Shown here one piece after another: positions 1,378 through 26,990 of a DNA stretch of 43,509 nucleotides. The notes beneath the pieces were generated by a model, which searched no databases, had not been told where the DNA came from, and saw only the letters and a program-made list of their open reading frames with translations. Numbering within the stretch: the stretch's first letter is position 1; the number at the start of each line of letters is the position of its first letter. The position numbers were made by a program, and so were the translations under genes. The DNA is from a virus (taxonomy: Duplodnaviria > Heunggongvirae > Uroviricota > Caudoviricetes), in IMG/VR virus record IMGVR_UViG_2703718810_000003, one strand, 5' to 3'.

Positions 1378-2058
1378 TCATCCCCGCCCGATAACCACCA
1401 CTTTCCCGTCACCGCCCTCATCACGGGTGCTGATGTCCTGGGATATCCGTCGTGAGCCAACCAGCATTTCACCGTAAGGCACCGGCATCGGGTTCCCCTG
1501 GGCAATCATGTTATCCAGCGAGGAAAAGTACGTGTTCTGTCTGCCGTTATCCGTTGCCCTGTATTCCGGTGTTTTGGGCTTCGGGGCCAGCATCTGAGCC
1601 ACACCACCCAGTATCATGCTGGCACCCAGTGAGAACAGCATCGTGGTGGCAGTCAGCCCTCCGGCACTCAGGGCTACGCCCCACAACGCCATCGTTGCAC
1701 CGGCGGTGAAGAAAGAGCCCACGATGGCTGCTGCCCCCAGCACCACCTGAAAAACACCATTTCCCCCGGCCCCTGCCAGCCGCGGTACAATATGAATCAC
1801 GGCCCTCCCGCTCAGCGGTTCATGAAGACGGGCATACACCGCCTCCGGCGCGGTATCCTCACCGGCAATACGTATCTGGTACCAGCCTTCGTTCATCTGA
1901 CAGCGGAATCCCGGCACCTGCAGCGACAGGGCACGGATGGCCTCCGCTGCCGTGTTCACATACAGGCTGATGCGGCGACCAAATCGTTGTAAATCCCCGT
2001 GAAGGCAGATGCGGACCAGTGGCGGTGACGCCAGACAGAATGCGTTCGTCGTTGCCAT
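1378..2058 (-). CDS. I: Tail assembly protein I
   Basis: 226 aa; LYGDLQRFGRR, AGEDT...VIHIVPR, TYFSSLDNM, VVVIG motifs match lambda gpI as I recall it; overlaps K 3' end as in lambda. Confidence 0.8.
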   Translation of the reverse strand: MATTNAFCLASPPLVRICLHGDLQRFGRRISLYVNTAAEAIRALSLQVPGFRCQMNEGWYQIRIAGEDTAPEAVYARLHEPLSGRAVIHIVPRLAGAGGNGVFQVVLGAAAIVGSFFTAGATMALWGVALSAGGLTATTMLFSLGASMILGGVAQMLAPKPKTPEYRATDNGRQNTYFSSLDNMIAQGNPMPVPYGEMLVGSRRISQDISTRDEGGDGKVVVIGRG

Positions 2059-2699
2059 TTCTCTGAATACCTCTCCCGTTTACTCAGTTGTTCAGGTATA
2101 TGGTGAAGCAGCTCACCGTTGCCACAGTAAATGGCGGCATGATTCGGCACCGATGCGCCAAAGCAGCACAGCAGGATATCGCCTGCCTGTGCACAGGACG
2201 GAGACACACGGTAAAAGCCGTTTTCCGCCAGGTTGTCCAGGTACAGGTTCTGACCGTTGCGCCACCAGTCATCCTCGCGGTGAAAATCCGGCATCTCAAT
2301 CCCCGCCAGATGGTATGCATCCCGGAACAGGGTGTAACAGTCCGTCACACCGTGTTCAAAGCGCCGTCCGGTCAGGTGCGGCACACAGCGGAACCGGTGA
2401 ATTTCCCCCCGGCAGACCAGCCACCAGGGCAGGGCACTCTTTATCTGCAGCCGCCGGTCAGCCTCGCTCAGCCAGGGCAGACCAGCGGGATGACTGTGGA
2501 CCAGCGCCACAATCTCCCCCTGCATCTGTGCCTGCAGCCAGTCTTCCGGTGTAATACGAAAATACGCCTCCGGCTCTGCGGAGATATTCACGCAGGGCTG
2601 GTACCGTTCGCCCTCCGGGGTGCTTATCACGAAGCCGCACGACTCCGCTGGCGCACACCGCCGGGCATGCACCAGAATCGCTGATTCAGTCTGTGTCAT
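1956..2699 (-). CDS. K: Tail assembly protein K (NlpC/P60-type peptidase-like)
   Basis: Internal start MTQTESAILVHARRCAPAESCGFV...HSHPAGLPWLSEADRR...CYTLFRDAYHLAGIEMPDF closely resembles lambda gpK; ATG at 2699 confirmed on complement. The track ORF extends upstream to a non-ATG start. Confidence 0.8.
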   Translation of the reverse strand: MTQTESAILVHARRCAPAESCGFVISTPEGERYQPCVNISAEPEAYFRITPEDWLQAQMQGEIVALVHSHPAGLPWLSEADRRLQIKSALPWWLVCRGEIHRFRCVPHLTGRRFEHGVTDCYTLFRDAYHLAGIEMPDFHREDDWWRNGQNLYLDNLAENGFYRVSPSCAQAGDILLCCFGASVPNHAAIYCGNGELLHHIPEQLSKRERYSEKWQRRTHSVWRHRHWSASAFTGIYNDLVAASACM

Positions 2700-2709
2700 A
2701 AAACAGGAT

Positions 2710-3408
2710 TTACTGCGAAAGTTTATTGATGGAAAGGAAACCGCCAAAATTGACCGCCATGCCGCGCATCTCACACCCGCGCATGCATTTACTGCATCTG
2801 TCCTTCCGGATATCCGTGGTGGGGTTGTCGAACTCATCCGCCACTGCCGGACCGTTATACCCGCACTCATCGCCCCGGTAATCCCACATACAGGTGTTCG
2901 CCAGCATGATGCGACCGGGAAACAGCGCCCCGTCCGTCTCCGTCGGTGTCGCCAGCACAAACGAGGCCGTCATGGCTGTCAGCGATGACATCTGCTCCAC
3001 CACCCACCGGTCCGTCAGCTCCTGCTCAGGGTCTGCCTCAGGATTGCCTGCCACAAAATTCACCGCATCCAGAAAACGCGCATACACCCGGCGACGGACC
3101 ACCGTGGCACCCACCAGGCTCTGCAAATCCTCCGCCATCCCGGTGACCAGTCCGAAAAGATTGGACACTGTCAGCGACGGGCGGGCACTGCTGCCCTTTC
3201 CGTTCATCTCAAAGCCGCTGCCCTCAATCGGGTACGCCTGATATTCACGCCCCTGCCAGGTCACCGGCTCCCCTTTTTCATTCAGCTCATTGCAGAAAAA
3301 ATACCGCTCACCGCCCTGCACCGTCAGGTCGATTTCCCAGAGCACCACCCGCGGTGACTGCTCTGACTTAACCGACACATTCAGGCTTGCTTCGTGAATA
3401 TCCTGCAT
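2710..3408 (-). CDS. L: Minor tail protein L
   Basis: MQDIHEASL...VVLWEIDLT...GERYFFCNE...GFLSINKLSQ closely resembles lambda gpL; ATG at 3408 overlaps the M stop (TGATG). Confidence 0.8.
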   Translation of the reverse strand: MQDIHEASLNVSVKSEQSPRVVLWEIDLTVQGGERYFFCNELNEKGEPVTWQGREYQAYPIEGSGFEMNGKGSSARPSLTVSNLFGLVTGMAEDLQSLVGATVVRRRVYARFLDAVNFVAGNPEADPEQELTDRWVVEQMSSLTAMTASFVLATPTETDGALFPGRIMLANTCMWDYRGDECGYNGPAVADEFDNPTTDIRKDRCSKCMRGCEMRGMAVNFGGFLSINKLSQ

Positions 3409-3749
3409 CAGTTCACCACCTGCTCTATCGTGCAACTGAAATCACTGTACCGGGCGTTATCCGTAATACTCCACTCCCGGCACACCACCCTGACCGTCCG
3501 GTTATGTTTCGGGGGCTTCCACAAAAAAGCCCGGTAACCACCATGCCATGACAGAAACGCGGACAGTGCCTCCCGCTCAGCATCCGTTGTCACCCGAAAA
3601 ACCACCTGAAAGGTCTTCAGTTGCGCATTCAGTCCTGCCGGACGACGTTGCTGATAACCGTCGCCAAACTTCACCGTCACCACCGACGGTTTCTCCGTCA
3701 CCTGCATCCCTTCCCGGGGACACCAGTGAAGGGTCTTAATCTCATCCAC
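3408..3749 (-). CDS. M: Minor tail protein M
   Basis: 113 aa with FGDGYQQRRPAGLNA...FLW.PP...EQVVN, matching lambda gpM. Confidence 0.75.
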   Translation of the reverse strand: MDEIKTLHWCPREGMQVTEKPSVVTVKFGDGYQQRRPAGLNAQLKTFQVVFRVTTDAEREALSAFLSWHGGYRAFLWKPPKHNRTVRVVCREWSITDNARYSDFSCTIEQVVN

Positions 3750-6700
3750 TCAGCATTCCTCCGTCACGACGCATGGATAACATCACCGCCTGTACCCGCT
3801 GGTCAATCAGTTGCACAAGGGTGCCCGCCGCTTCCGGCCCTATCTGCCCGTTAGCGCCGTCATTCTGAATGGCAATGTGGTACACCGGGGAATACACCAG
3901 ACCCGCACTGCCGTTCATACAGCCCACCGCACGCACGCCGAGTGAACCATCCGCTGCCCGGGTCAGGGGCATGATGGCTTCAGGTCCGGCTTCCCCCATC
4001 AGCCCTGCCCCTTTTGCAAAGGCAAAGTACGTGGGCGTGTCCACAATACTGTTACTGTATGCACTCAGGTTTGCCGAGGTATAAACGCCGCCTTTTGCAT
4101 TGGCCACCGCGCCACCCAGCCAGTTGCCTATACTGCCGAAAAATCCTCCTGCACCGGACATACTGTTTGCGGCCATCTTAATGCCGTTGACAATGGCCGC
4201 ACTCATAAGAACTTTTGATATTTCCTGCAGGATTGATGCAGCCCAGCTGCGCCATTCCACTTTATTTCCGTTCAGCATCTCCGTGATGTTATTCACCATC
4301 CCTGAGATACCGTCTGTCGCAAGCTGTGCTGCCTGTGAAGCGTAATCAGATGCGCTGTCCACCCAGTTACTTAGCCCTTCCTGCAGCCCTTTCTGCCAGT
4401 CAGCACGCTGCGCATCCGATTCGGCATAAAAAGCCTCCTGGTCTTTAAGGCGTTCACTCAGATACTGCGCATTCTGCGCCAGCGCCTGTCTGAAAAAATC
4501 CTCACTGATATCCCCTGTCTGATACTGAGACTGCAGGTCCGCATCCTTCTGGCGGTAGCCGTCACGAATCTGCTGCAGCTCCCGCATCCGTTCACGGACC
4601 CGCTCACCCTGCCCGTACCCCAGCAGCTCAGCGTCATTTGATGCCCTTTCGTCTGCATTATCATTTTTCAGAGCCTCCTCCCGGGCCCGTAACTGCTCCC
4701 GGATTTTCTTCTGGTCAATCAGGGCAGCATTGCGCAGCAACTCCTGCTTCTGTATCTCCGTCAGGGTTTTCAGCTCTCCCTGCGAGGTCTGGTACTTCAG
4801 CTTCGCCAGTTCTGTATTATTCCCTGCCAGTGCCAGTTGTTCCTTCTGCTGCTTCAGCAGACGGGAAAAACTGTCTTCCGCTTTTTCCGTCTCAGATTTT
4901 CCGCCCCGGGATTTGGGTTTATTCGCCTCATTATTGCGCCAGGCTTCCATCGAATTACGGATGTAACGCTGCCTCGCCTCCTGATACGTATCCCCCACCA
5001 GACCAAGGTCATCCGCCGCATACCCCAGCCGGGCACGCTCTTTTTCTTCCCCTTTCAGCCGGGACAGGGCCAGTTGACGCTCTGTGTTATTCAGGGCGCT
5101 CTGCTGTTTATCATCCAGAGTGGCCTGTGGCAGTCGCAGCGGTACACTCGCCAGTCCCTGACGCTGTTGCAGCAGTTCATTACCCAGCCCCAGCAGGCGG
5201 TTGAATTCCGTATGCTGACCGTTCATGACCAGCTGTGACTGATACGCTTTATTCTGCTCTGCCGCCTGCTGACGAATTAACACAACACGGCGCTCTTCCA
5301 GTCCGGCAAGCACATCCTGAATGGACTGCGCTTTTTCCTGCATCTGTGCCAGACGGGACTGCTCAACAGCAAACTGCTCTGTTGCCTGAGCAAGCTCTTC
5401 CGTTACAGTTTTCACCGATGTCAGATGGTTTATCATGAAGCCGTTACCGGTCGTCCAGCCCGGATTAGCCAGCACATACTGATACCCGGCAATTTTTTCC
5501 TGCAGGGATTTCACCCGGCTGGCCTGCTCATCAATCAGCCGGTTCTGCTCTGTCAGCGCCTCCCGTGTTCGCCCTTCGTTATCTGAGGCTTCAGGCAGAG
5601 ACATTGATGGCGTTTTATGCGCGATTTCATCTATCGTCAGTGCATACTGGCGCGCAGACTCCCTGGCCTGTTCCTGCTTCTGGTACAGCGTGTACCATGC
5701 GGCAGCTCCCAGCATCACCAGTCCGGGTACGCCTCCAACCAGTCCCAGCGCACCTCTCATCAGACGTGAACCCACCGCCGTTGTACTGTTCAGCGCATTC
5801 TGGGCGGCGGTTCTGGCAGCAATATTTCTGTTCAGGCGTTCCTGTGTGACCGCCAGACGGGCCTCTGCGGCAATCTGCATCTCAGTCCCGCGGGCTGCCG
5901 CCACAGCCTGCTGAGCCCGGTACACGGCTGCCCTTGCCCGCGCAGTGGCAATCTGCGTTCCCCTTAACTGGGCCTCAGCCAGTGCCACTTCATTACGTGC
6001 AGCGGTCACAAGTCCTGCCGTGGCAGACATCGCTCCGGAAGCCAGATTACCAAAGTACCGGGCCACCCCGACAGCAACCAGCACACCCGCAGCTGTTGCC
6101 ACGGTATCAATATTTCCGGCCACACCGTTCAGCGCGCCGGAGAGCGTTTTCGTCGCTCCGCTGGCCTCATTCGCGCCGCCCACCCAGGCCATAAAGGCGT
6201 TTTCCACCTTCGTGATACTACCGGAAACCGTTTCCGGCATGGCTGCATATTCATCACGCAATATCCCCAGCTGGCTGATTAACGCGGGAACGACTTTATC
6301 CGCCGTCAGTTGACCATCGTCCGCCATCGCCTTCAGATCCTTACGGGCCACGCCCATGCCTGCAGCCAGTGCGCGAATGATCCGGTCCCCACTTTCATTG
6401 ACCGAATTAAATTCCTCGCCGCGCAACACCCCCTGTGCCAGCGCCTGGCTGAACTGGGTGATCACCGAACCCGCCTCTGCCGCACTGGCACCGGAAATTT
6501 TCAGCCCTGTCGAAATGGCCTCCGTCACCTTCAGCACATCATCAGCACTGTAACCATATTCACGCATCGAGGCAGCCGAACGGGCAAACAGGGCCGCATT
6601 ATCCGAAAATGCGGTGCCTGTCCGCTGGCTGATATCCATCAGCACTTTCTGTGATGACGAAAATTCATCCGATGACTGCGACGCCTGTTTCAGACGGGCA

Positions 6701-7725: not shown

Positions 7726-8442
7726 TTATCCGGCGGCTGCGCTCACTGTCACGGTGCATTCAACAGACGTCACACTCTGTGCTTTCTCTGCCGAATCAGT
7801 CACCATGCAGGTATATTTCCCCGCATCGGCGGACTGCGCACCTGGCTTACTGAAGGTGTCTGTCGTCTGCCCGTCAACCGGCTGACCATCCTTCTTCCAG
7901 GCGTATTTATACGGCGGCGTTCCCCCGTTGGCACTGACTGACATTGTCAGCAGCACACCGGTATTCACGGTAAGTGTCTTATCCAGATTTTTCACAAACG
8001 CCAGCGGTACCACAAAGGACACCGGTTTGCCTTTCAGACGCAGTGAGAACGTTGCAGCCACCACGCCGTTGGTACCGGATGACCAGGTGTGCTGACGCAC
8101 TTCCGCCAGGAATTTAAAGCCCTTACCGGACGGAAACTGCACCTTAAACGCATACAACGCGTCATTGTCATAAGCATCACGCAGGGCGTTCTGGGCCTGA
8201 TTCAGATAGAAATTACCCGACATGGAAATCTCGGACGACGCCCCCAGACCATTGATGTTCTCCTGCTCTGTGGAGCAGAGCGTGGTCACATCAATATCCT
8301 GTTTCTGACCGGCGGTGAACTGGACTTCCTTGATGGTGCAGTCCAGGCGCAGATATTCCGCCTTATCCATAGTTTCAGCAGTCGCCGGGGCAGATGAAAT
8401 CATCACCTGCGTCAGCTGTGAGCGTTCATACAAAGCAGACAT
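7726..8442 (-). CDS. V: Major tail protein (V-like) with C-terminal Ig-like domain
   Basis: ATG at 8442 preceded by AGGAGGCAGA; C-terminal segment KYAWKKDGQPV...YTCMVTD...ECTVTV looks like an Ig-like domain, as on lambda gpV. Confidence 0.7.
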   Translation of the reverse strand: MSALYERSQLTQVMISSAPATAETMDKAEYLRLDCTIKEVQFTAGQKQDIDVTTLCSTEQENINGLGASSEISMSGNFYLNQAQNALRDAYDNDALYAFKVQFPSGKGFKFLAEVRQHTWSSGTNGVVAATFSLRLKGKPVSFVVPLAFVKNLDKTLTVNTGVLLTMSVSANGGTPPYKYAWKKDGQPVDGQTTDTFSKPGAQSADAGKYTCMVTDSAEKAQSVTSVECTVTVSAAAG

Positions 8443-8507
8443 TCTGCCTCCTGATAATAAAAAAACCGCACGCGGCGGGGTATGGGTTTTGTAGAAAAAA
8501 GAAAAAG

Positions 8508-8852
8508 TCACACCGTGACCTGAAACTCCAGGGTTGCACGGTAACAGCGGTTTTCCGGAATATAGTCCTGCATTTCACTGACGGATCCCGGGGCCAGCTG
8601 CATTATGGCTTCACGGGCGTCCTGACGTATCTGACGCGCCTGCGTCACAGTCCCGGCATAAACGTCTATCTGCACCGCCACTGAGGACTCCGCCTGCCCG
8701 CCCATCACGTCCGCAGACACCGATGAAATCAGGCTGAAAACCACCCACGGAAGCGCCACCGACGGCCTGCCATCCAGCAGGGGGACCACATACGGGTACA
8801 CCTGCCCGCCGGCAAGATGCGCCAGATGAGGATACAAATCCGCCTCCGTCAT
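8508..8852 (-). CDS. Tail terminator / tail completion protein (gpU-like position)
   Basis: 114-aa ORF directly upstream of the major tail gene; assignment by synteny only. Confidence 0.45.
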   Translation of the reverse strand: MTEADLYPHLAHLAGGQVYPYVVPLLDGRPSVALPWVVFSLISSVSADVMGGQAESSVAVQIDVYAGTVTQARQIRQDAREAIMQLAPGSVSEMQDYIPENRCYRATLEFQVTV

Positions 8853-17697: not shown

Positions 17698-18030
17698 TCA
17701 GGGTGCAGAAGGACTAAAGATAAACGTTTTCTTCACGCCTTTACGCGGCCTGTCCTTCTCAAATCGCCATTTTGCCATCGCTTTTACAACCTGCTCATCA
17801 AACAGATGGTGCGGCTCTGAACGGATAAACTCAATTCGGGTGACAGTACCATCAGCACCAATATCAAACTTCACATCAACCCGTCCCTTTATATAATTTG
17901 CCGCTGCATAGGCCGGATATTGTGGTAATGCCTTAACCAACTGTCGGGGCATATCTGTTTTATGTTGCGTACAGCCCATAACCAGAGAAGACAACAAAAT
18001 AATTAACGGAAGATTTCTTTTCATTTTCAT
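17698..18030 (-). CDS. Lipoprotein with TonB C-terminal domain
   Basis: Signal peptide plus lipobox (LPLIILLSSLVMGC); PQYPAYAAANYIKGRVDVKFDIGADGTVTRIEFIRSEPHHLFDEQVVKAMAKWRF aligns with E. coli TonB C-terminus (PQYPARAQALRIEGQVKVKFDV...MRRWRYEP) as I recall it. Confidence 0.7.
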   Translation of the reverse strand: MKMKRNLPLIILLSSLVMGCTQHKTDMPRQLVKALPQYPAYAAANYIKGRVDVKFDIGADGTVTRIEFIRSEPHHLFDEQVVKAMAKWRFEKDRPRKGVKKTFIFSPSAP

Positions 18031-20846: not shown

Positions 20847-22835
20847 TTATGATGAAGAGGTTGCCTGGTTAATGCTTACCATGATACTGCGGAACATGAC
20901 AGGATAAGATTTTCCCTGATTTGCGCTGATACCTGTCACTGTGATGTTATCCACCGTAAAGGCAGAAGTGACCGGACCTTCTTTCAGTGCAAAACCTGTT
21001 TTCTCTTCTCCGTCAAGTACCGGAATAACCTGGTGATTGCCGCCTCCTTTATATTTAAAGACAAGCGTGTGCCAGTTGTTATTAACCGCACCGAATGACT
21101 CAATTTTTGTATTAGGCTGTGTTTTACCGTGATACATGACATCCAGGTTACTGGCTTTTGTCTGAGTGAAAAAGGAGGCCATCATATTGCTGCTGTTGCC
21201 TTCCTGAGTCCACCCGGAAACTGGCAGGTAAACACCAAAGAGGTATTTGTCATCTGCAACCTGGGTACCATCCGGCAACCTGAATTCAAGTTTTATTTCA
21301 CCGCCATTTTCATACAGAGCACGGGCATCTTCAGCTGATACTCCTGCTGACAGCATCCACGGTCCCTGTTTGCCCTCATGCTGCTTAATCTTCAGCACCT
21401 GTCTGCTTTCATCATTAACAAACTCGGCGACACCGTCCCGGGCATTCCAGTGCTGGGCTGCCCAGTTACCACCGAGGCTGTCTTTCTCAACAGCTGAATT
21501 ATACTCAACAACCGTTCTTCTCTGAGGTGCATCCTGTGATAACGCAGCATCCTCCACAGGTGACGGGAAATTTCCGGATGTAACGTTTTCCCGTTCATCT
21601 CCTGCAACTACCGTTTCTGACCGCCCGGTGATAAACGCCGGGTATTTGCCTGCGTGGGTCAGAATTGCGGTTGCAAGACGATCTGAAATAATTCCACGCC
21701 GCGCCCATGAACCGAAATGGCTTGCCCTGTCACCTGACGTCCAGCTGACAGAACTGTCTCGCCACTTCGAACCGGAGTAGCCAATACCTTCAATATCAGG
21801 ATCTTCTGCCGGATTATTGGTCTGCACATTTACCCCGCTTCCATCAACCATGAAAGGGACAAAGTGAATATTCTGCGCTGCCTTATTTTTATATCCACCG
21901 TATACAGTTTCATAAGACGCAGCATATTTTTCTTTCCAGTAATGCGTCGTATCGCCACAAACCCACGGAACGCTCAGTGCCGAGCCCCCCACGCACTGCC
22001 CTGACATATCAGCGATGTCAGCACGGAATTTCTGTACCATGCCAGTAAAAAGAGCATTATGACTCTGGCTTCCTGAAGCCAGATCACTCTCCCCCTGCAT
22101 CCAGATTACCGCCAGCAGGATATTTCCGGGATTTTTAGCCAGCGCGACTTTCGTGCGACTTAACAGATCCTGGTACAGCGGCTTATCAGCTCCCCACAAT
22201 GCAGAATCAGGGCTTGCCCCGGAAGAGGCGTTAAATGTTCCCTCATTACCTGTAGTCACTCCCGAGCCTCCACGACAGCATGGAACCAGAAGAATGCCCG
22301 CATTCGCCGGTATAAACGGTAACAGTTTTTTGGCAATATGCAGTCCCTGACCCACACAACCATACTGACCTTTATTGAGGTCTGCCCGGGGGTGATTTTT
22401 TTCACTCATATCCATCACATCATGAAGACAATGATCTGCCGGAATAACATCGTTATAGGTGCAGGGAACGCCTCGCGGCGTAACGGTACGTCGACGGGCA
22501 AGCTGCTTAATTCTCGGATCAGGGCGATCATAAGAATCAGGTAACGGTACTCCCTCTCCAAAAGACATACCATTTGACTGACCCGCCAGCGCGACAACAT
22601 AATAATATTCAGGCTCACCGGTCTTGCTGATAGCCGTCTCCCCGTCACCCGATGGTTTAACCAGCACCGGCGTGGTGACATCACCTTCCGCCGCAATAGC
22701 CTGCATCAGGGTATAAGGCGTGATGGCGACAGGGCTGCCAAATGGCTGCCACCCCTCCTTCAGTTTTTGTGTCAGTCGTTCAGCAAGGTCTGACGGCGAT
22801 GCCGCCCTGACCACATCGTAGTGTTTAAATGCCAT
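20847..22835 (-). CDS. NanS-p-like sialate O-acetylesterase (N-terminal DUF1737-like region plus SASA/SGNH-like hydrolase)
   Basis: 662 aa beginning MAFKHYDVVRAASPSDLAERL; VVALAGQSNGMSFG esterase motif; occupies the position of the ~645-aa ORF downstream of stx in Stx phages. Confidence 0.7.
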   Translation of the reverse strand: MAFKHYDVVRAASPSDLAERLTQKLKEGWQPFGSPVAITPYTLMQAIAAEGDVTTPVLVKPSGDGETAISKTGEPEYYYVVALAGQSNGMSFGEGVPLPDSYDRPDPRIKQLARRRTVTPRGVPCTYNDVIPADHCLHDVMDMSEKNHPRADLNKGQYGCVGQGLHIAKKLLPFIPANAGILLVPCCRGGSGVTTGNEGTFNASSGASPDSALWGADKPLYQDLLSRTKVALAKNPGNILLAVIWMQGESDLASGSQSHNALFTGMVQKFRADIADMSGQCVGGSALSVPWVCGDTTHYWKEKYAASYETVYGGYKNKAAQNIHFVPFMVDGSGVNVQTNNPAEDPDIEGIGYSGSKWRDSSVSWTSGDRASHFGSWARRGIISDRLATAILTHAGKYPAFITGRSETVVAGDERENVTSGNFPSPVEDAALSQDAPQRRTVVEYNSAVEKDSLGGNWAAQHWNARDGVAEFVNDESRQVLKIKQHEGKQGPWMLSAGVSAEDARALYENGGEIKLEFRLPDGTQVADDKYLFGVYLPVSGWTQEGNSSNMMASFFTQTKASNLDVMYHGKTQPNTKIESFGAVNNNWHTLVFKYKGGGNHQVIPVLDGEEKTGFALKEGPVTSAFTVDNITVTGISANQGKSYPVMFRSIMVSINQATSSS

Positions 22836-23053: not shown

Positions 23054-23058
23054 GCATG

Positions 23059-23084
23059 TAAAAAGGCTCCTGCAATGAGGAGCC
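23059..23084 (-). terminator. Minus-strand terminator downstream of structured element 1
   Basis: GGCTCCT-loop-AGGAGCC followed by U-run on minus strand; convergent with plus-strand terminator at 23028. Confidence 0.45.
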
Positions 23085-23112
23085 TGGATGTATGCCTAAT
23101 CTCTGTATACTA

Positions 23113-23226
23113 CATGGTGCCGGGTGCCTCCCGGTGAGTTCAGTATCAGCACCTGAACCCGCACAGAAAGGATAGAGTAGAAACACCTGCGCTGATATGC
23201 CCCTCCGCTCAGGGGGATTCACCATG
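23113..23226 (-). ncRNA. Structured RNA-like element, copy 1 (strand assignment tentative)
   Basis: CATGGTG...CACCATG closing helix enclosing hairpins CCGGGTGCCTCCCGG and CCCCTCCGCNCAGGGGG; three paralogous copies in window. Confidence 0.45.
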
Positions 23227-23321
23227 CAGAACTTTTTTAACAACTCCCCGTCAGACAGGCAAGCATCAACCATCTGAACTGTGAGGGATTTAACATTTAA
23301 CAACACAGCCTTTTCCCGCAC

Positions 23322-23346
23322 AAAAAAAGCCCCTCAGGAGAGGGGC
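23322..23346 (-). terminator. Minus-strand terminator downstream of structured element 2
   Basis: GCCCCTC-AGGA-GAGGGGC followed by 7 U on minus strand. Confidence 0.55.
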
Positions 23347-23373
23347 CGATCGCTGTGTATACACCATAAGCAG

Positions 23374-23485
23374 CATAGTGCCGGGTGCCTCCCGGTAGAT
23401 TCAGCCTGACTACTGAATCTGCGTATTGTGACCATCGCTATGGAGACCATGTCAGACGCCCCTCCGCACAGGGGGATTCACTATG
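23374..23485 (-). ncRNA. Structured RNA-like element, copy 2
   Basis: Closing helix here is CATAGTG...CACTATG: both strands changed compensatorily relative to copies 1 and 3. Confidence 0.45.
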
Positions 23486-23723
23486 CTGGCTCGTTTTTAC
23501 AAGACTTCCATCAATCAGACAATAGTCCATCAACCGAATTGTGAGTCATTTAACATTTCCATGAGGTAACTGATATCCAGCTAACAATCATCTGCAATGG
23601 ACGAAGCCAGTTCCAGAACTTGCCCACACTACAGCAACAACCACTGCATTCCAAAAATGGAATTTTGGGAGATTACTTCTGCAAACAGCTACCGATAAAT
23701 ATATCCCTGATTGCCTGCGCAGT

Positions 23724-23837
23724 CTGTTCAAAACGCCCGGTATCCAGCTCAACGCCTATAGCACGACGCCCCAGCGCCATCGCTGCTTTAACTGCCGAAC
23801 CCTACCCCATGAAGAAATCTGCAACCAGGCCACCCGG
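23724..23837 (-). pseudogene. Internal fragment of a second DNA methyltransferase gene (paralogous to 25255..25368), with in-frame stop
   Basis: ~114 bp near-identical to the 3' region of the intact methylase; translation PGGLVADFFMG*GSAVKAAMALGRRAIGVELDTGRFEQ. Confidence 0.7.
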
Positions 23838-23880
23838 CAGAAGGGAGACTACAGCCCGCAATTCGAAAAAGGCCGCGCAG

Positions 23881-23984: not shown

Positions 23985-23990
23985 GTCCAT

Positions 23991-24014
23991 AAGAAAGCCC
24001 CTCCAGAGAGGGGC
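23991..24014 (-). terminator. Minus-strand hairpin downstream of structured element 3
   Basis: GCCCCTC-CAGA-GAGGGGC followed by UUUCUU on minus strand. Confidence 0.4.
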
Positions 24015-24042
24015 TGAAGCCGCATTTCTGTATCACCATGAA

Positions 24043-24167
24043 CATGGTGCCGGGTGCCTCCCGGTGAGTTCAGCCCGGTGACACTAAACCCGCGTATTCT
24101 CGCTTACGATCATCAAAGAGATCATACCGTTCACCAGTCGCCCCTCCGCACAGGGGGATTCACCATG
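24043..24167 (-). ncRNA. Structured RNA-like element, copy 3
   Basis: Same conserved 5' and 3' blocks as copy 1 with a different central insert. Confidence 0.45.
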
Positions 24168-24303
24168 CGAAATTTTTTTAACAAATGCCCAGTCTGACAG
24201 GCAACTGTCAACTTACTGAATTGTGAGGAATTTAACACTTCACAGCACAATATCTTTCCAGCACCCCAAAATCATCTGGACAGGAGAAAATCTTCTCCCC
24301 CAG

Positions 24304-24732
24304 TCAGAGTTTAAAATCCAGCACGCCATTTCTAAATGCTTTATATACTCCTGAAGACGGTGGTGATGGTATATCAGCATTCTTTACTGCATTCATCGCT
24401 TCACGACATAAATCGGGATCACCGCTTTCTCTTTTAACCTGTAGCAGAAGACCATTCGGGGCCATATACATTCTCAGTGAACACTCTTTTCCTGAATACT
24501 TACCCGCATCCTTTAACTGTTCTTCTATGGCTTCCCTGACCTGAATGGCATACTGCCGGATTTCTTCACTGGCATCAGGGGTACGTTCCGATAAGCTCAA
24601 ATTTTGCGACTTTATTAATTTATCTGAGTGATGCAGCGAAGCATCATAATTATTTGTCGATACATCTTTTGTGCAGCCAGTTGTCAGACTGGCTAATATC
24701 AAAACAAGAACCGGTACAGCACGGCAATACAT
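24304..24732 (-). CDS. Lipoprotein with TolA C-terminal (domain III)-like domain
   Basis: Signal peptide plus lipobox (LILASLTTGC); C-terminal YAIQVREAIEEQLKDAGKYSGKECSLRMYMAPNGLLLQVKRESGDPDLCREAMNAVKNADIPSPPSSGVYKAF aligns with E. coli TolA C-terminus (YAGQIKSAIESKFYDASSYAGKTCTLRIKLAPDGMLLDIKPEGGDPALCQAALAAAKLAKIPKPPSQAVYEVF) as I recall it. AT-rich gene and flanks. Confidence 0.75.
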   Translation of the reverse strand: MYCRAVPVLVLILASLTTGCTKDVSTNNYDASLHHSDKLIKSQNLSLSERTPDASEEIRQYAIQVREAIEEQLKDAGKYSGKECSLRMYMAPNGLLLQVKRESGDPDLCREAMNAVKNADIPSPPSSGVYKAFRNGVLDFKL

Positions 24733-25010
24733 TTATCCATCTCCATATTAACAAGAACAATTATCTATAAAATATAGTAAATATGCGGGATCCGGGAGGA
24801 CTTGTAACTATCATCTCCGGATCAGCATGTAGTTTTTATTTTTCCGGATGATATATGCCGCAATAATACCCCTGCATACAGATGCCTGCAAATATCTACG
24901 AAGCATCCGGCGAGAATAAACAAGGAAATCTGAGACTATCTTATATGATAGCCTGTTGCTCAAAAGACAATGATTCACTCATCAGAGCTAACAACGCATG
25001 ATGCAGATAA

Positions 25011-25087
25011 TGGACCGCCATCGAGGACTCGAACCCCGCGCAGCCAGCTCCGAAGGCTGGCGCTCTATCCCGATGAGCTAATGGCGA
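25011..25087 (-). tRNA. tRNA-Arg (anticodon UCG by my reading of the loop CUUCGGA)
   Basis: Cloverleaf foldable by hand: 7-bp acceptor (U1-G72 wobble), D-arm GCTC/GAGC with GG, anticodon stem CCAGC/GCTGG, T-arm CGGGG-TTCGAGT-CCTCG, encoded CCA. Confidence 0.8.
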
Positions 25088-25096
25088 TATGTGATA

Positions 25097-25172
25097 TGGT
25101 GGCCCTTGCTGGATTTGAACCAGCGACCTGGCGATTATGAGTCGCTCGCTCTCACCACTGAGCTAAAGGGCC
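25097..25172 (-). tRNA. tRNA with CAU anticodon (Ile2-lysidine type like ileX/ileZ, or Met)
   Basis: GGCCCTTTAGCTCAGTGGTGAGAGCGAGCGACTCATAATCGCC...TTCAAATCCAGCAAGGGCCACCA; near-identical to my recollection of E. coli ileX. Confidence 0.85.
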
Positions 25173-25212: not shown

Positions 25213-26271
25213 TCATCCGTTCTGGCTGGCTAAATCCTGAACTTCCCTGACCGTCTGCTCAAAACGTTCAGTCTCCAGCTCAACGCCTGTAGCACGACGC
25301 CCCAACACCATCGCTGCTTTGACTGTCGAACCCGACCCCATGAAGAAATCTGCAACCAGGTCACCCGGACGACTGCTCGCACTGATTATCTGCTGCAGCA
25401 TTTCTGCCGGTTTTTCGCACGGATGTTTCCCGGGATAGTACTGCACCGGTTTATGCGTCCACACATCGGTGTACGGCACCCGCACCGTCACACCGAAATA
25501 CCGCCGCAGATGCTTATATTCACTCTGCAGTTCCGTATACTGCCGGTTCAGTTCACTGTATGTGCTGACCAGTTGGTGATGTGGCTTTTCCAGTTCTCCG
25601 CGCTGATGCTTCTCTTCTGCCACCCGGGCATACAGCGCCTGTAATTTCAGATAATCGCTTTCGTCCGGTAACTGCCACTGGCTGGCACTGAACCAGTGCG
25701 ACACCATGTTTTTCTTTCCTGTGGCATCCACTATCTGTTTTGCCGTTATCCCCAGGGCAGCACGCGCATCACGAAAGTAAGAAATCAGCGGGGCCATCAC
25801 ATGCTGTTTCAGTGCCCTGCCCTTCGCCTCATACCCGGCATCTTTCGGGCGATACGGCCCCTGATAATGTTCCGCGAACAGAATGCGCTCTGTGGCGGGG
25901 AAATACGCCCTCAGGCTTTCCTTGTTGCACCCGTTCCAGCGTCCGGACGGCTTTGCCCAGATAATATGGTTCAGCACACTGAAGTGTTCACGCATCATGA
26001 TTTCGATATCAGATGCCAGGCGATGGCCACAGAACAGGTAAAGACTTCCGGCAGGTTTCAGCACCCGCCAGAACTGCGCAAGACACTGGTCCAGCCACTT
26101 CAGGTAATCATCGTCGCCCTTCCACTGGTTATCCCAGCCCTCAGGCTTCACTTTAAAGTACGGCGGGTCCGTGACTATCAGATCAACAGAATTTTCGGGT
26201 AACGACCGGATAAATTCCAGGCAGTCAGCGTTGATTAACTCACAACTGGATATTTTTACAGTGTTAAGCAT
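25213..26271 (-). CDS. DNA methyltransferase (N6-adenine / N4-cytosine family, beta-class motif order)
   Basis: 352 aa; DPPY motif near N-terminus (LIVTDPPYF) and FFMGSGST near C-terminus. Confidence 0.8.
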   Translation of the reverse strand: MLNTVKISSCELINADCLEFIRSLPENSVDLIVTDPPYFKVKPEGWDNQWKGDDDYLKWLDQCLAQFWRVLKPAGSLYLFCGHRLASDIEIMMREHFSVLNHIIWAKPSGRWNGCNKESLRAYFPATERILFAEHYQGPYRPKDAGYEAKGRALKQHVMAPLISYFRDARAALGITAKQIVDATGKKNMVSHWFSASQWQLPDESDYLKLQALYARVAEEKHQRGELEKPHHQLVSTYSELNRQYTELQSEYKHLRRYFGVTVRVPYTDVWTHKPVQYYPGKHPCEKPAEMLQQIISASSRPGDLVADFFMGSGSTVKAAMVLGRRATGVELETERFEQTVREVQDLASQNG

Positions 26272-26742: not shown

Positions 26743-26765
26743 AAAAAACCCCGCCAGTGGCGGGG
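26743..26765 (-). terminator. Intrinsic terminator (late-leader terminator 2)
   Basis: CCCCGCC-AGT-GGCGGGG followed by UUUUUUAU on minus strand. Confidence 0.6.
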
Positions 26766-26968: not shown

Positions 26969-26990
26969 AAAAAACCCGCTCGGCGGCGGG
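26969..26990 (-). terminator. Candidate tR' (first terminator downstream of pR')
   Basis: CCCGC-loop-GCGGG followed by UUUUUU on minus strand, ~50-70 nt downstream of predicted pR' start. Confidence 0.5.

Follow-up and report, generated by a model that had tools for sequence, protein, structure and literature searches.

Which gene does a prophage carry in the slot of its late region where Stx phages carry stx, when the toxin genes themselves are missing, and what might that gene do? The window, by which we mean the whole stretch of 43,509 nucleotides that was analysed (IMG/VR virus record IMGVR_UViG_2703718810_000003; Caudoviricetes), raises this question, since its late region resembles that of a Stx phage. 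Here, we describe the gene found in the slot, which encodes a lipoprotein-type precursor with a true homologue of TolA domain III, together with its distribution, its relatives on plasmids and the functions that may explain its retention. We give an even chance to the reading that the protein is an outer-membrane-tethered TolAIII decoy.

The gene and its place in the stx slot

The coding sequence occupies positions 24304..24732 of the window on the minus strand (open reading frame list; stop codon at 24304-24306) and specifies 142 amino acids. A Shine-Dalgarno sequence, GGAG, is read at 24741..24744 on the minus strand, 8 nt before the ATG. A preliminary description of this DNA had placed a lipoprotein gene here, and the reading frame proved to be exact, with the lipobox TTGC and Cys20. 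The N-terminus of the protein, MYCRAVPVLVLILASLTTGC, comprises a positive n-region with R4, a hydrophobic core with the uncharged h-region VPVLVLILASL, and then the lipobox T-T-G-C20. On the basis of this reading and of the family alignment, the signal peptide with lipobox L16-T-T-G-C20 spans 24673..24732 (minus strand). G19, C20 and T21 are unchanged across the 13 members of the family alignment, and a lipobox match is present in 34 of the 41 proteins of a wider class of short lipoproteins. Lipidation is predicted at Cys20 as the first residue, and the threonine at +2, where an aspartate is not found, predicts sorting to the outer membrane.

A linker of ~32 residues follows (residues 21-52; 24577..24672, minus strand). 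It is predicted to be disordered, with pLDDT <50 over residues 1-51, and is the fastest-evolving part of the protein (dN 0.23-0.44 vs 0.10-0.14 in the domain). The remainder, residues 53-142 (24307..24576, minus strand), is the TolA domain III homologue, as identified from PDB and Pfam matches and from the predicted fold. The protein is assigned to PHROG 5772, whose function is listed as unknown.

The surrounding genes all lie on the minus strand. Their order is DUF968, RusA, Q (PF06323), an N6 DNA methylase, tRNA(CAU), tRNA-Arg and the TolA-like gene, followed by three STnc100 RNA elements, a SASA/nanS-p-type esterase, DUF1378 and DUF826, and then by the holin, lysozyme and Rz/Rz1 genes. The late antiterminator Q is at 27063..27752 (minus strand; Pfam Phage_antiter_Q, 2.6e-89). 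Both tRNA genes, tRNA(CAU) at 25097-25172 and tRNA-Arg UCG at 25011-25087 (minus strand), were detected by ARAGORN and Rfam, and the first is named ileZ/tRNA-Ile by PGAP in the near-identical locus L001. The neighbourhood also contains a fragment of a DNA methylase, at roughly 23670-23840. No stx open reading frame is present in the slot, either in the open reading frame list of the window or in the annotation of its relative; the earlier claim of a Stx-phage-like late layout that lacks stx A and B is thus upheld.

The position of the slot can be fixed at base-pair resolution by blastn against the Stx2 phage Stx2a_1447 (L003). Positions 26764-24985 of the window match 1418-3186 of that phage with 94% identity, and 24226-23989 match 4628-4866 with 90% identity. 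Because homology breaks at 24985, after the tRNA-Arg gene (argN), and resumes at 24226, directly past stx2B, we conclude that a 758-bp cassette with the TolA-like gene (24227..24984, minus strand) stands in place of argO, stx2A and stx2B. The gene has the marks of a moron, being swapped between conserved flanks and deviant in composition: GC is 0.38-0.44 over 24100-25000 vs 0.49-0.56 in the flanks, in keeping with the AT-richness noted in the preliminary description. Elsewhere, the gene is found behind different types of Q (PF06323, PF03589 and DUF1133).

As it lies downstream of Q on the same strand, the TolA-like gene is probably part of the Q-dependent late transcription unit. Terminator-like hairpins are found downstream of Q at 26975-26990 and 26749-26765, and a weak hairpin follows the stop codon of the TolA-like gene. 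A consensus scan also returned a candidate weak sigma-70-like promoter (TTTGCA, 18 nt, TATTAT; 9/12) at 24863..24892 on the minus strand. The count of promoter-like sites in this AT-rich upstream region is not above shuffle expectation, and an alignment of the upstream regions of four alleles, in which a conserved promoter was sought, found these regions not to be conserved.

A TolA domain III without the rest of TolA

Residues 55-141 align without gaps to residues 334-420 of E. coli TolA, with ~50% identity over 87 residues. The PDB entries 1s62, 3qdp, 2x9a, 1tol and 9k49 are matched at E = 7e-25 to 2e-23, again with ~50% identity, and the Pfam entry PF06519 (TolA_C) scores 78.9 bits vs a cut-off of 25; chance cannot account for such matches. 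The resemblance to TolA domain III that had been recognized from the translation alone is therefore one of true homology. The preliminary description had also proposed structure prediction and superposition as a check, and these return the TolAIII fold: block-mean pLDDT is 72-92 for residues 52-141, and the top PDB match in Foldseek is E. coli TolAIII (2x9a_B), with a target TM-score of 0.90 and an rmsd of 1.0 Å over 87 columns. Cys84 and Cys109 correspond to the disulfide pair C363/C388 of TolA.

The other parts of TolA are absent. There is no transmembrane anchor (domain I), and a cleavable lipoprotein signal peptide stands in its place; the Ala/Lys/Glu-rich helical domain II is also missing, so that Cys20 and the domain are separated by the linker only. 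The tol-pal operon context is absent as well; the gene belongs to a lambdoid late operon, where tRNA-Arg precedes it and the nanS-p-type esterase gene follows. The protein is a ‘headless’ TolA, consisting of the C-terminal ligand-binding domain III alone, and it cannot be a working TolA because it lacks the membrane anchor and the long helical domain. The name ‘tolA’ given by PGAP is explained by the TIGR02794 cut-off, which is exceeded (72.6 bits vs 59.45) by a match to model positions 270-361 of 362. The score against PRK09510, 99.8 bits, is below the cut-off of 213, and the match begins at position 298 of 387. Recent capture from the host tolA can be ruled out, as there is no nucleotide match to chromosomal tolA and the amino acid identity to any long TolA representative is <=49%.

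The ligand-binding surface is partly retained. The TolB N-terminus, colicin N and g3p bind TolA by augmentation of strand β3, and proline mutants at TolA D418 and K420 abolish the binding of ColN, g3p and TolB (PMC4339652). In our protein, this strand is the C-terminal L138-D-F-K141, equivalent to TolA L417-K420. All three prophage alleles have TolA residues L417, D418, F419 and K420 unchanged, and these are kept in 34-36 of the 41 members of the wider short-lipoprotein class, in which position 420 is K or R in 35 of 41. The cysteines Cys363 and Cys388 do not vary. Conservation does not extend to the colicin A site: K368 is replaced by Y/H, D377 by Q/E and P380 by R. Further systematic changes relative to TolA are P416V and A415G. 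Given the replacement of Lys368, colicin A is a less plausible target of a decoy than the molecules that bind at β3, namely the TolB N-terminus, colicin N and g3p.

Distribution, selection and relatives

Of 5426 complete E. coli genomes, 897 (~16%) have the family by sensitive blastn and 83% are without it; 894 of the 897 contain >80% of the gene. The small share of genomes that is matched argues that the gene is not a recent tolA fragment. Between alleles, dN/dS is 0.25-0.39 with dS up to 0.68 (whole gene), and the gene evolves under purifying selection. Several matching strain names are those of STEC strains, among which the window allele is common.

Viral loci were located with the alignment of the prophage family. 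The holin gene is downstream and co-directional in every locus with enough downstream sequence (61 viral loci), at a distance of 804 nt in the 65%-identity allele and of 3-6 kb in the window allele. The TolA-like gene also survives intact in truncated prophages from which the lysis cassette is partly or wholly missing (L013 and L014), and this retention argues for a benefit outside lysis. A nucleotide search of the phage collection gave no match, and the protein-level phage search gave one record, the hybrid phage mEp460_ev081; deposited phage genomes thus under-represent the family. PADLOC gave no match to the TolA-like gene.

In the searchable literature, we found no functional study of the family and no paper tying it to any phenotype. 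The mentions that exist are incidental: annotation lists (PMC6854850), chromosomal tolA (PMC2948877) and a passing remark in which the presence of plasmid TolA-C proteins is merely noted (PMC10269471). Many genes of the family are labelled ‘cell envelope integrity protein TolA’, which they are not. This mislabelling hides a distinct accessory family and inflates the apparent copy number of tolA.

Using tblastn, we found related proteins with a lipobox and a TolAIII domain in 1328 plasmid records; WP_001237044 and WP_072354022 are examples. In plasmid locus L004, a two-gene operon of a TolA-like and a TonB-like gene adjoins cloacin, immunity and lysis genes. In pO157-type plasmids (L005), a copy is found in IncF leading regions, downstream of psiB-psiA-hok.

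The prophage itself has a TonB-like lipoprotein too. It had been reported at 17698..18030, and our analysis agrees, with the coding sequence at 17698..18024 on the minus strand, 108 amino acids, a VMGC lipobox and a Pfam TonB_C match at 5.5e-15; identity to the C-terminal domain of E. coli TonB is ~45% (E = 3e-16). This gene lies downstream of Rz/Rz1 and is also present in phage 21 and in Stx1a phages. It accompanies the TolA-like gene in 5 of the ~18 viral loci with enough downstream flank, and we rejected the pairing as a fixed prophage module because the whole block occurs in just 9 of 5426 genomes.

Possible functions and comparison with known systems

How a decoy would work can be outlined from the anatomy of the protein. 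The lipoprotein signal peptide would export it, Cys20 would be lipidated, and sorting would bring it to the inner face of the outer membrane, where a flexible linker of ~30 residues would tether domain III. Lacking domains I and II, it cannot couple to the TolQ-TolR motor. With fold, disulfide and strand β3 (L-D-F-K) all kept, it could capture Tol ligands by β-strand augmentation, namely the translocation domains of group A colicins and g3p-N1 on their arrival at the periplasmic side of the outer membrane. Alternatively, it might catch the TolB N-terminus that invaders exploit, before energised TolA is reached. Either way, the lysogen would be tolerant of Tol-dependent invaders. For this protein, we infer that it is lipidated, located in the outer membrane and expressed in the lysogen, that it binds ligands and that it confers tolerance.

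Affinities measured for TolAIII, 1 µM for ColN vs 40 µM for TolB (PMC4339652), bear on the cost of such a decoy: since invaders bind at ~1 µM and TolB at ~40 µM, a modest amount could block invaders with little damage to Tol-Pal. The functions put forward in the preliminary description, a decoy giving exclusion or colicin tolerance or else a perturbation of Tol-Pal, are consistent with the anatomy of the protein and with published dominant-negative effects of periplasmic TolAIII. Levengood-Freyermuth and colleagues reportedly obtained tolerance to colicins and f1 from periplasmic TolAIII in 1993. Fusions of a signal sequence to TolAIII are employed to render the outer membrane of E. coli leaky (PMC6195910, which cites Levengood-Freyermuth 1993 and Wan & Baneyx 1998).

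A selected function at the level of the lysogen is favoured by the low dN/dS, the intact gene in 894 of the 5426 genomes, its retention in decayed prophages and its moron-like composition. The decoy reading also draws on the identity and fold of the domain, the lipobox architecture, the conserved β3 site, the laboratory precedent and independent recurrence on mobile elements linked to bacteriocins and pili. Against it, the candidate promoter of the gene is a weak consensus match, with upstream regions that differ between alleles, and the fixed, co-directional place in the late operon agrees at least as well with late as with lysogenic expression. Stability of the fold, rather than ligand binding, may account for the conservation of β3, the host could pay a price for a decoy that also binds TolB, the colicin A site is not conserved, and the PADLOC and literature searches came up empty.

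Late expression is the starting point of another explanation, which we consider unlikely: the protein would be made only after induction, from the Q-dependent late transcript, and would titrate the TolB N-terminus away from TolA. The resulting acute tol phenotype (outer-membrane destabilization, periplasmic leakage and hypervesiculation) would aid lysis, the release of virions or that of periplasmic cargo. The place downstream of Q and co-directional with the holin gene suits this antagonism, as do the conserved TolB-binding strand, the leakiness caused by exported TolAIII (PMC6195910), the hypervesiculation of tol mutants (PMC7391070; PMC11032300) and the cloacin-plasmid relative that adjoins a bacteriocin-release gene. 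However, the prophage already has a complete holin-endolysin-Rz/Rz1 set, and the gene stays intact in decayed prophages that have lost lysis genes. In addition, the weak affinity between TolA and TolB (~40 µM; PMC4339652) means that titration would need high protein levels. If the antagonist reading were true, the Shiga toxin slot would here hold a new accessory lysis or vesiculation factor.

The same fold could also serve another ligand, such as the protein with which a rival tailed phage enters, a tailocin or effector, peptidoglycan or an outer-membrane protein; it may also be exposed on the surface as an adhesin or serum-resistance factor like Bor or Lom. These two are late-region prophage morons that act on host interactions, and they lend this idea some plausibility. 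So do the ~50% of domain residues that differ from TolA, with K368Y/H, P380R, P416V and A415G among the systematic changes, and the promiscuity of β-strand augmentation sites (PMC4339652). We nevertheless judge it quite improbable: no positive evidence points to any alternative ligand, the best-conserved surface across the class is the TolB/g3p/ColN strand, and recurrence beside colicin-type bacteriocin genes and a protein with a TonB C-terminal domain points to import hubs.

That the gene is a neutral passenger or a decaying, functionless fragment of a captured tolA has very little to recommend it. Lambdoid late regions are mosaic and contain gene fragments, such as that of the DNA methylase nearby; however, here an intact reading frame follows a good Shine-Dalgarno sequence, the cysteines of lipobox and disulfide never vary, and most of the gene is present in nearly all matching genomes, and we reject a decaying fragment on dN/dS. 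The weakest reading, a genuine second TolA transducing energy from TolQR as the automatic annotation has it, draws on the TIGR02794 score only and has a negligible chance, being ruled out as a TolA paralogue by an architecture of just 142 amino acids with a lipoprotein signal peptide for an anchor, no domain II, matches that cover no more than the final ~90 positions of either TolA model, a PRK09510 score below the cut-off and a location in a prophage late operon rather than tol-pal.

Should the decoy reading be correct, prophages and plasmids would equip cells with a general defence against group A colicins and against filamentous phages that depend on pili, and the TonB-like partner would extend it to group B colicins and TonB-dependent phages. 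Such a layer of competition and exclusion would operate at the periplasmic import hub and not at surface receptors or DNA, and would be relevant to colicin and bacteriocin therapeutics, to M13-based tools in natural isolates and to STEC ecology. More tentatively, and with the odds in our view somewhat against it, lipid-anchored or secreted TolA and TonB C-terminal domains may be widespread, unrecognized ‘import-hub decoys’ of mobile elements. They would be carried by lambdoid prophages in the stx and bor slots, by cloacin/klebicin plasmids as a two-gene operon, and by IncF leading regions. If so, they would make their hosts broadly tolerant of colicins and phages that depend on Tol or Ton, by exploiting the far higher affinity of invaders compared with endogenous partners, and nature would have anticipated the laboratory overexpression of periplasmic TolAIII or of the TonB C-terminal domain.

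How does the protein compare with known systems? With E. coli TolAIII (1S62, 3QDP, 1TOL and 2X9A) it shares the fold, the C363/C388 disulfide and the β3 strand L417-D418-F419-K420. In place of the TolQR-coupled transmembrane helix (domain I) and domain II of TolA, it carries a lipoprotein signal peptide followed by a short, disordered tether, and the colicin A contacts K368, D377 and P380 are altered. Its gene is part of a prophage late operon and has no nucleotide similarity to chromosomal tolA. The engineered periplasmic TolAIII is likewise an isolated domain III in the periplasm without the energy-coupling parts, whereas the prophage version is natural, borne on a mobile element, ~50% diverged and predicted to be lipid-anchored rather than soluble.

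Phages with stx1 or stx2 have the same slot and flanks (methylase, ileZ, argN, cargo, STnc100 element, nanS-p esterase and lysis genes), and relative to the Stx2 phage the cassette junctions lie ≤~30 bp from argN and ≤~45 bp from stx2B. The cargo differs, being an envelope-protein domain here and an AB5 toxin there, and argO is missing here.

Plasmid-borne short TolA-C lipoproteins have the same build of lipobox and TolAIII in 123-145 amino acids and are also carried by mobile elements. In cloacin-type ColRNAI plasmids, the TolA-like gene forms an operon with a TonB-like gene whose product, as in the prophage, has the TonB C-terminal domain only. The β3 motif is kept as LDFR/K in two Klebsiella plasmid proteins and is FDMR in the pO157-type protein. 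In contrast to this common build, the plasmid relatives are only 28-37% identical to the window protein, and their contexts differ (beside bacteriocin-immunity-lysis genes, in IncF leading regions and on IncFIB plasmids).

Comparable too are Cor (phi80, N15 and HK022) and Llp (T5), small phage lipoproteins that shield the host by blocking an envelope import route of other phages and colicins, through inactivation of the outer-membrane receptor FhuA. The prophage protein is unrelated to them in sequence and, instead of blocking a receptor, copies the domain of a periplasmic hub.

The TolA-like gene and its product

The preliminary description placed a lipoprotein gene at 24304..24732, and an ORF of 142 residues is present at exactly those coordinates on the minus strand, with a GGAG Shine-Dalgarno sequence 8 nt 5′ of its ATG. 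In the N-terminus, MYCRAVPVLVLILASLTTGC, a positive residue and a hydrophobic core precede a lipobox whose last residue is Cys20, and G19, C20 and T21 do not vary among 13 family members, so that the product is a predicted lipoprotein, as had been proposed. The claim that its C-terminus corresponds to TolA domain III (TolAIII) is borne out by an ungapped alignment of residues 55-141 with E. coli TolA 334-420 at ~50% identity, by matches to seven PDB sequences (1s62, 3qdp, 2x9a, 1tol, 9k49 and others; E = 7e-25 to 2e-23) and by a score of 78.9 bits against a cut-off of 25 for PF06519 (Pfam TolA_C). Superposition of a predicted structure, which the same description had suggested, gave a concordant result. 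The AlphaFold2 model, computed from the family alignment, is confident over residues 52-141 (block means 72-92) and disordered over 1-51, and its best PDB match is 2x9a_B, the E. coli TolAIII of an If1 g3p complex (target TM-score 0.90; rmsd 1.0 Å over 87 columns), followed by 1tol, 3qdr, 3qdp and 1s62.

The cargo gene is indeed AT-rich: together with its upstream region it has a GC content of 0.38-0.44 vs 0.49-0.56 in the flanks. A promoter scan upstream of the gene yielded one weak consensus match, and the upstream regions are unlike between alleles. PHROGs places the protein in phrog_5772, ‘unknown function’, and a PADLOC search with the gene gave no match.

We reject the identification of this protein as TolA itself. 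In both NCBIfam TolA models, its HMM match takes in no more than the final ~90 positions; the protein scores 72.6 bits on TIGR02794, over the cut-off of 59.45, hence its database name, and 99.8 on PRK09510, far under the cut-off of 213. Transmembrane domain I, helical domain II and the tol-pal operon context are all missing, and the protein cannot take energy from TolQ-TolR. An origin as a recent fragment of host tolA is also rejected. Sensitive blastn finds the whole family in 897 of 5426 complete E. coli genomes (16.5%) but not in every one, which shows that the search detects no DNA similarity to chromosomal tolA. Among 1.84 billion proteins, the long TolA representatives reach at most 49% identity.

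Gene order and the stx position

Read 5′ to 3′ on the minus strand, the region comprises DUF968 (28115-29164), RusA (27743-28102), antiterminator Q (27063-27752; Pfam 2.6e-89), a small ORF, an N6 DNA methylase (25213-26271), a tRNA(CAU) (25097-25172), a tRNA-Arg (25011-25087), the TolA-like gene, three STnc100 copies, a 662-aa nanS-p-type esterase with DUF1737-SASA-DUF6645 architecture (20847-22835), DUF1378, DUF826, a holin of P21 type, lysozyme, and Rz with Rz1 embedded in it. The locus is 99.9% identical in E. coli S19-651 over the 7-kb block tested; the TolA-like gene there is 100% identical and is named by PGAP ‘tolA: cell envelope integrity protein TolA’. ARAGORN calls the tRNA at 25097-25172 tRNA-Met (CAT), and this near-identical RefSeq locus and the Stx phages have it as tRNA-Ile (ileZ).

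Many Stx2 phages share homologous flanks with this locus. Against the Stx2a phage Stx2a_1447, homology at 94% identity runs from 26764 to 24985, stopping just past argN, and returns at 24226 with 90% identity, a point that corresponds to 4628 in the comparison locus, 46 bp past the stx2B stop. The 758 bp at 24227-24984 thus stand in place of the 1441 bp of argO, stx2A and stx2B, and the proposal that the gene occupies the stx position of Stx phages holds at base-pair resolution. The cassette junction directly follows argN, which is why the locus lacks argO, the third of the tRNAs in the Stx2 set.

The STnc100 sRNA-family copies (23985-24197, 23320-23515 and 23054-23255, minus strand; 169, 121 and 164 bits in Rfam, gathering score 47) are tandemly dispersed between the TolA-like gene and the esterase, each with a terminator-like hairpin at its end. 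A single copy immediately follows stx2B in Stx2a_1447. The number of copies 3′ of the gene is 0-4 in viral loci with the window allele and zero in those with the 65% allele. Between the copies, at ~23670-23840 on the minus strand, lies a DNA methyltransferase gene fragment, within which 23722-23837 is 85% identical by blastn to the 3′ part of the Stx2-phage methylase; PGAP marks it as a 165-bp pseudogene in S19-651. This fragment suggests that STnc100 multiplied via duplication or recombination of the methylase-tRNA-cargo segment. Elsewhere, inside the early/nin region, a gene pair on the opposite, plus strand (29611-31466), annotated in S19-651 as a phosphoadenosine phosphosulfate reductase (408 aa) and an IbrB-like (ParB-type) protein (214 aa), is an IbrA/IbrB-like module.

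Distribution, relatives and the TonB-like lipoprotein

The family falls into three main allele groups, at ~96%, 70% and 64% amino-acid identity. The window allele type (≥80% nucleotide identity) is found in 126 of the 5426 E. coli genomes; the family as a whole reaches at most three copies per genome, is chromosomal in 958 of 960 places and is nearly always full-length. Among IMG/VR viral contigs, all 61 loci retrieved contain the gene, which lies 5′ of the holin and co-directional with it wherever there is enough downstream sequence, at a distance of 804 nt for the 65% allele and of 3-6 kb, with nanS-p between, for the window allele. At least three unrelated antiterminator types precede it (PF06323, PF03589 and DUF1133), and the host phages differ in their replication and packaging modules; the gene behaves as a mobile cargo cassette. 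In the loci with the 70% allele (L013-L016), Q is separated from the TolA-like gene by an AraC-family regulator gene (HTH_18) and a TfpB-family gene (7826-8539), which may belong to the cargo of this slot as well, or may regulate it. Between allele groups, pairwise dN/dS is 0.25-0.39 and dS reaches 0.68 over the whole gene and 1.4 in the signal-peptide/linker region, the TolAIII domain being under stronger constraint than signal peptide and linker.

When 1.84 billion representatives were searched exhaustively, proteins of 120-160 aa that match over their full length made up about half of the 150 best matches. A lipobox is present in 34 of the 41 short TolAIII proteins examined, and those with named sources (Serratia, Kosakonia, Scandinavium and others) are also labelled ‘TolA’ or ‘colicin import membrane protein’. 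Relatives were detected by tblastn in 1328 plasmid records (Klebsiella 672, Escherichia 550), and three plasmid contexts were inspected. On the 10,060-bp ColRNAI cloacin-type plasmid NZ_CP074119.1 of K. pneumoniae, a 123-aa lipobox-TolAIII gene and a 121-aa gene for a signal peptide and TonB C-terminal domain overlap by 4 nt in an operon (3423-4156) adjoining a colicin-like tRNase-domain bacteriocin, its immunity gene and a release-lysis gene; among the matches listed, six 10,060-bp and several ~11-12-kb plasmid records carry the TolA-like gene. On pO157-type IncF plasmids (NZ_CP062706.1, 4947-5378; AB011549.2, 53810-54181), a 131-143-aa lipobox-TolAIII protein with 28% identity to the window protein is encoded in the leading region, 3′ of psiB-psiA-hok and 5′ of toxB; an F-type plasmid here bears a copy of the Ff-phage co-receptor domain. 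On Klebsiella IncFIB plasmids, the TolAIII gene adjoins a thioredoxin-fold gene.

The TonB-domain lipoprotein noticed earlier in the same prophage is also confirmed, as a 108-aa product encoded at 17698-18024 on the minus strand, 3′ of Rz/Rz1 (Pfam TonB_C 5.5e-15; ~45% identity to the E. coli TonB C-terminal domain). Its gene occurs at 98-99% identity in Stx1a phages, Lys8385Vzw and JLK-2012, and in a 71%-identity version in phage 21 and several others; its PHROGs family, ‘Rz-like spanin’ (phrog_1267), looks like a mislabel by position. A fixed TolA-like/TonB-like pair in prophages was rejected: the whole block occurs in nine genomes only, and the TonB-like gene in 5 of ~18 informative viral loci with the TolA-like gene. 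Even so, a TolA tip and a TonB tip have been brought together independently on the bacteriocin plasmid and in the window prophage, which suggests that the theme they share is the two hubs of colicin/phage import.

Binding sites and proposed function

With TolA numbering equal to query plus 279, the TolA β3 strand L417-D418-F419-K420 is L138-D-F-K141 in all three prophage alleles. Among the 41 short TolAIII proteins, which were drawn from prophages, plasmids and other genera, no surface is better conserved (Leu in 35, Asp in 34, Phe in 36, Lys or Arg at the last position in 35); the disulfide cysteines do not vary. The TolB N-terminus, g3p-N1 and colicin N attach to β3 by β-strand augmentation, and D418P and K420P in TolA abolish all three interactions and give a full tol phenotype (PMC4339652, PMC7391070). 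The site used by colicin A lies on the opposite face and has not been kept. In TolA, a cation-π contact of Lys368 with ColA Tyr58 is essential to the stability of the complex (PMC3365938); here Lys368 is replaced by Tyr or His, D377 by Q or E and P380 by R; K379 and K396 are retained.

In its anatomy the protein is the tip of TolA, the part that binds ligands, in an exported and probably lipid-anchored form. Its +2 residue is Thr, not Asp, which predicts sorting to the outer membrane, from which the domain would hang on a flexible tether of ~30 residues. This is precisely the place at which the TolA-binding epitopes of colicin translocation domains, g3p-N1 and TolB-Pal complexes are displayed. 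TolAIII-only export constructs make E. coli leaky and are used for this purpose (PMC6195910, citing Levengood-Freyermuth 1993, Wan & Baneyx 1998). TolAIII binds colicin N at ~1 µM vs ~40 µM for TolB (PMC4339652). At these affinities, a modest concentration of decoy should intercept invaders preferentially. The 1993 study of Levengood-Freyermuth reportedly also described tolerance to colicins and f1. The most likely function, which we judge about as probable as all others together, is that of an outer-membrane-tethered decoy conferring tolerance to Tol-dependent colicins and filamentous phages.

The preliminary description had proposed this function and also its main rival, and both are plausible. 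The rival, an antagonist of Tol-Pal that is expressed late and would loosen the outer membrane during lysis, is favoured by the invariant place of the gene in the Q-dependent late operon, but we consider it considerably less likely. Against it count the complete spanin set of the prophage and the presence of the gene in remnants lacking a complete lysis cassette: in the decayed prophages L013 and L014 it is intact, with the lysis cassette partly or wholly gone.

We found no study of these proteins in the full-text literature searched, an absence that is no proof that none has been published. The family is common, mislabelled, mechanistically suggestive and directly testable. We class its product as a putative lipoprotein of the phage/plasmid exclusion type, made from a hub domain captured from the host. 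The family is already in the databases under a misleading name, with an architecture and a likely role distinct from those of TolA.
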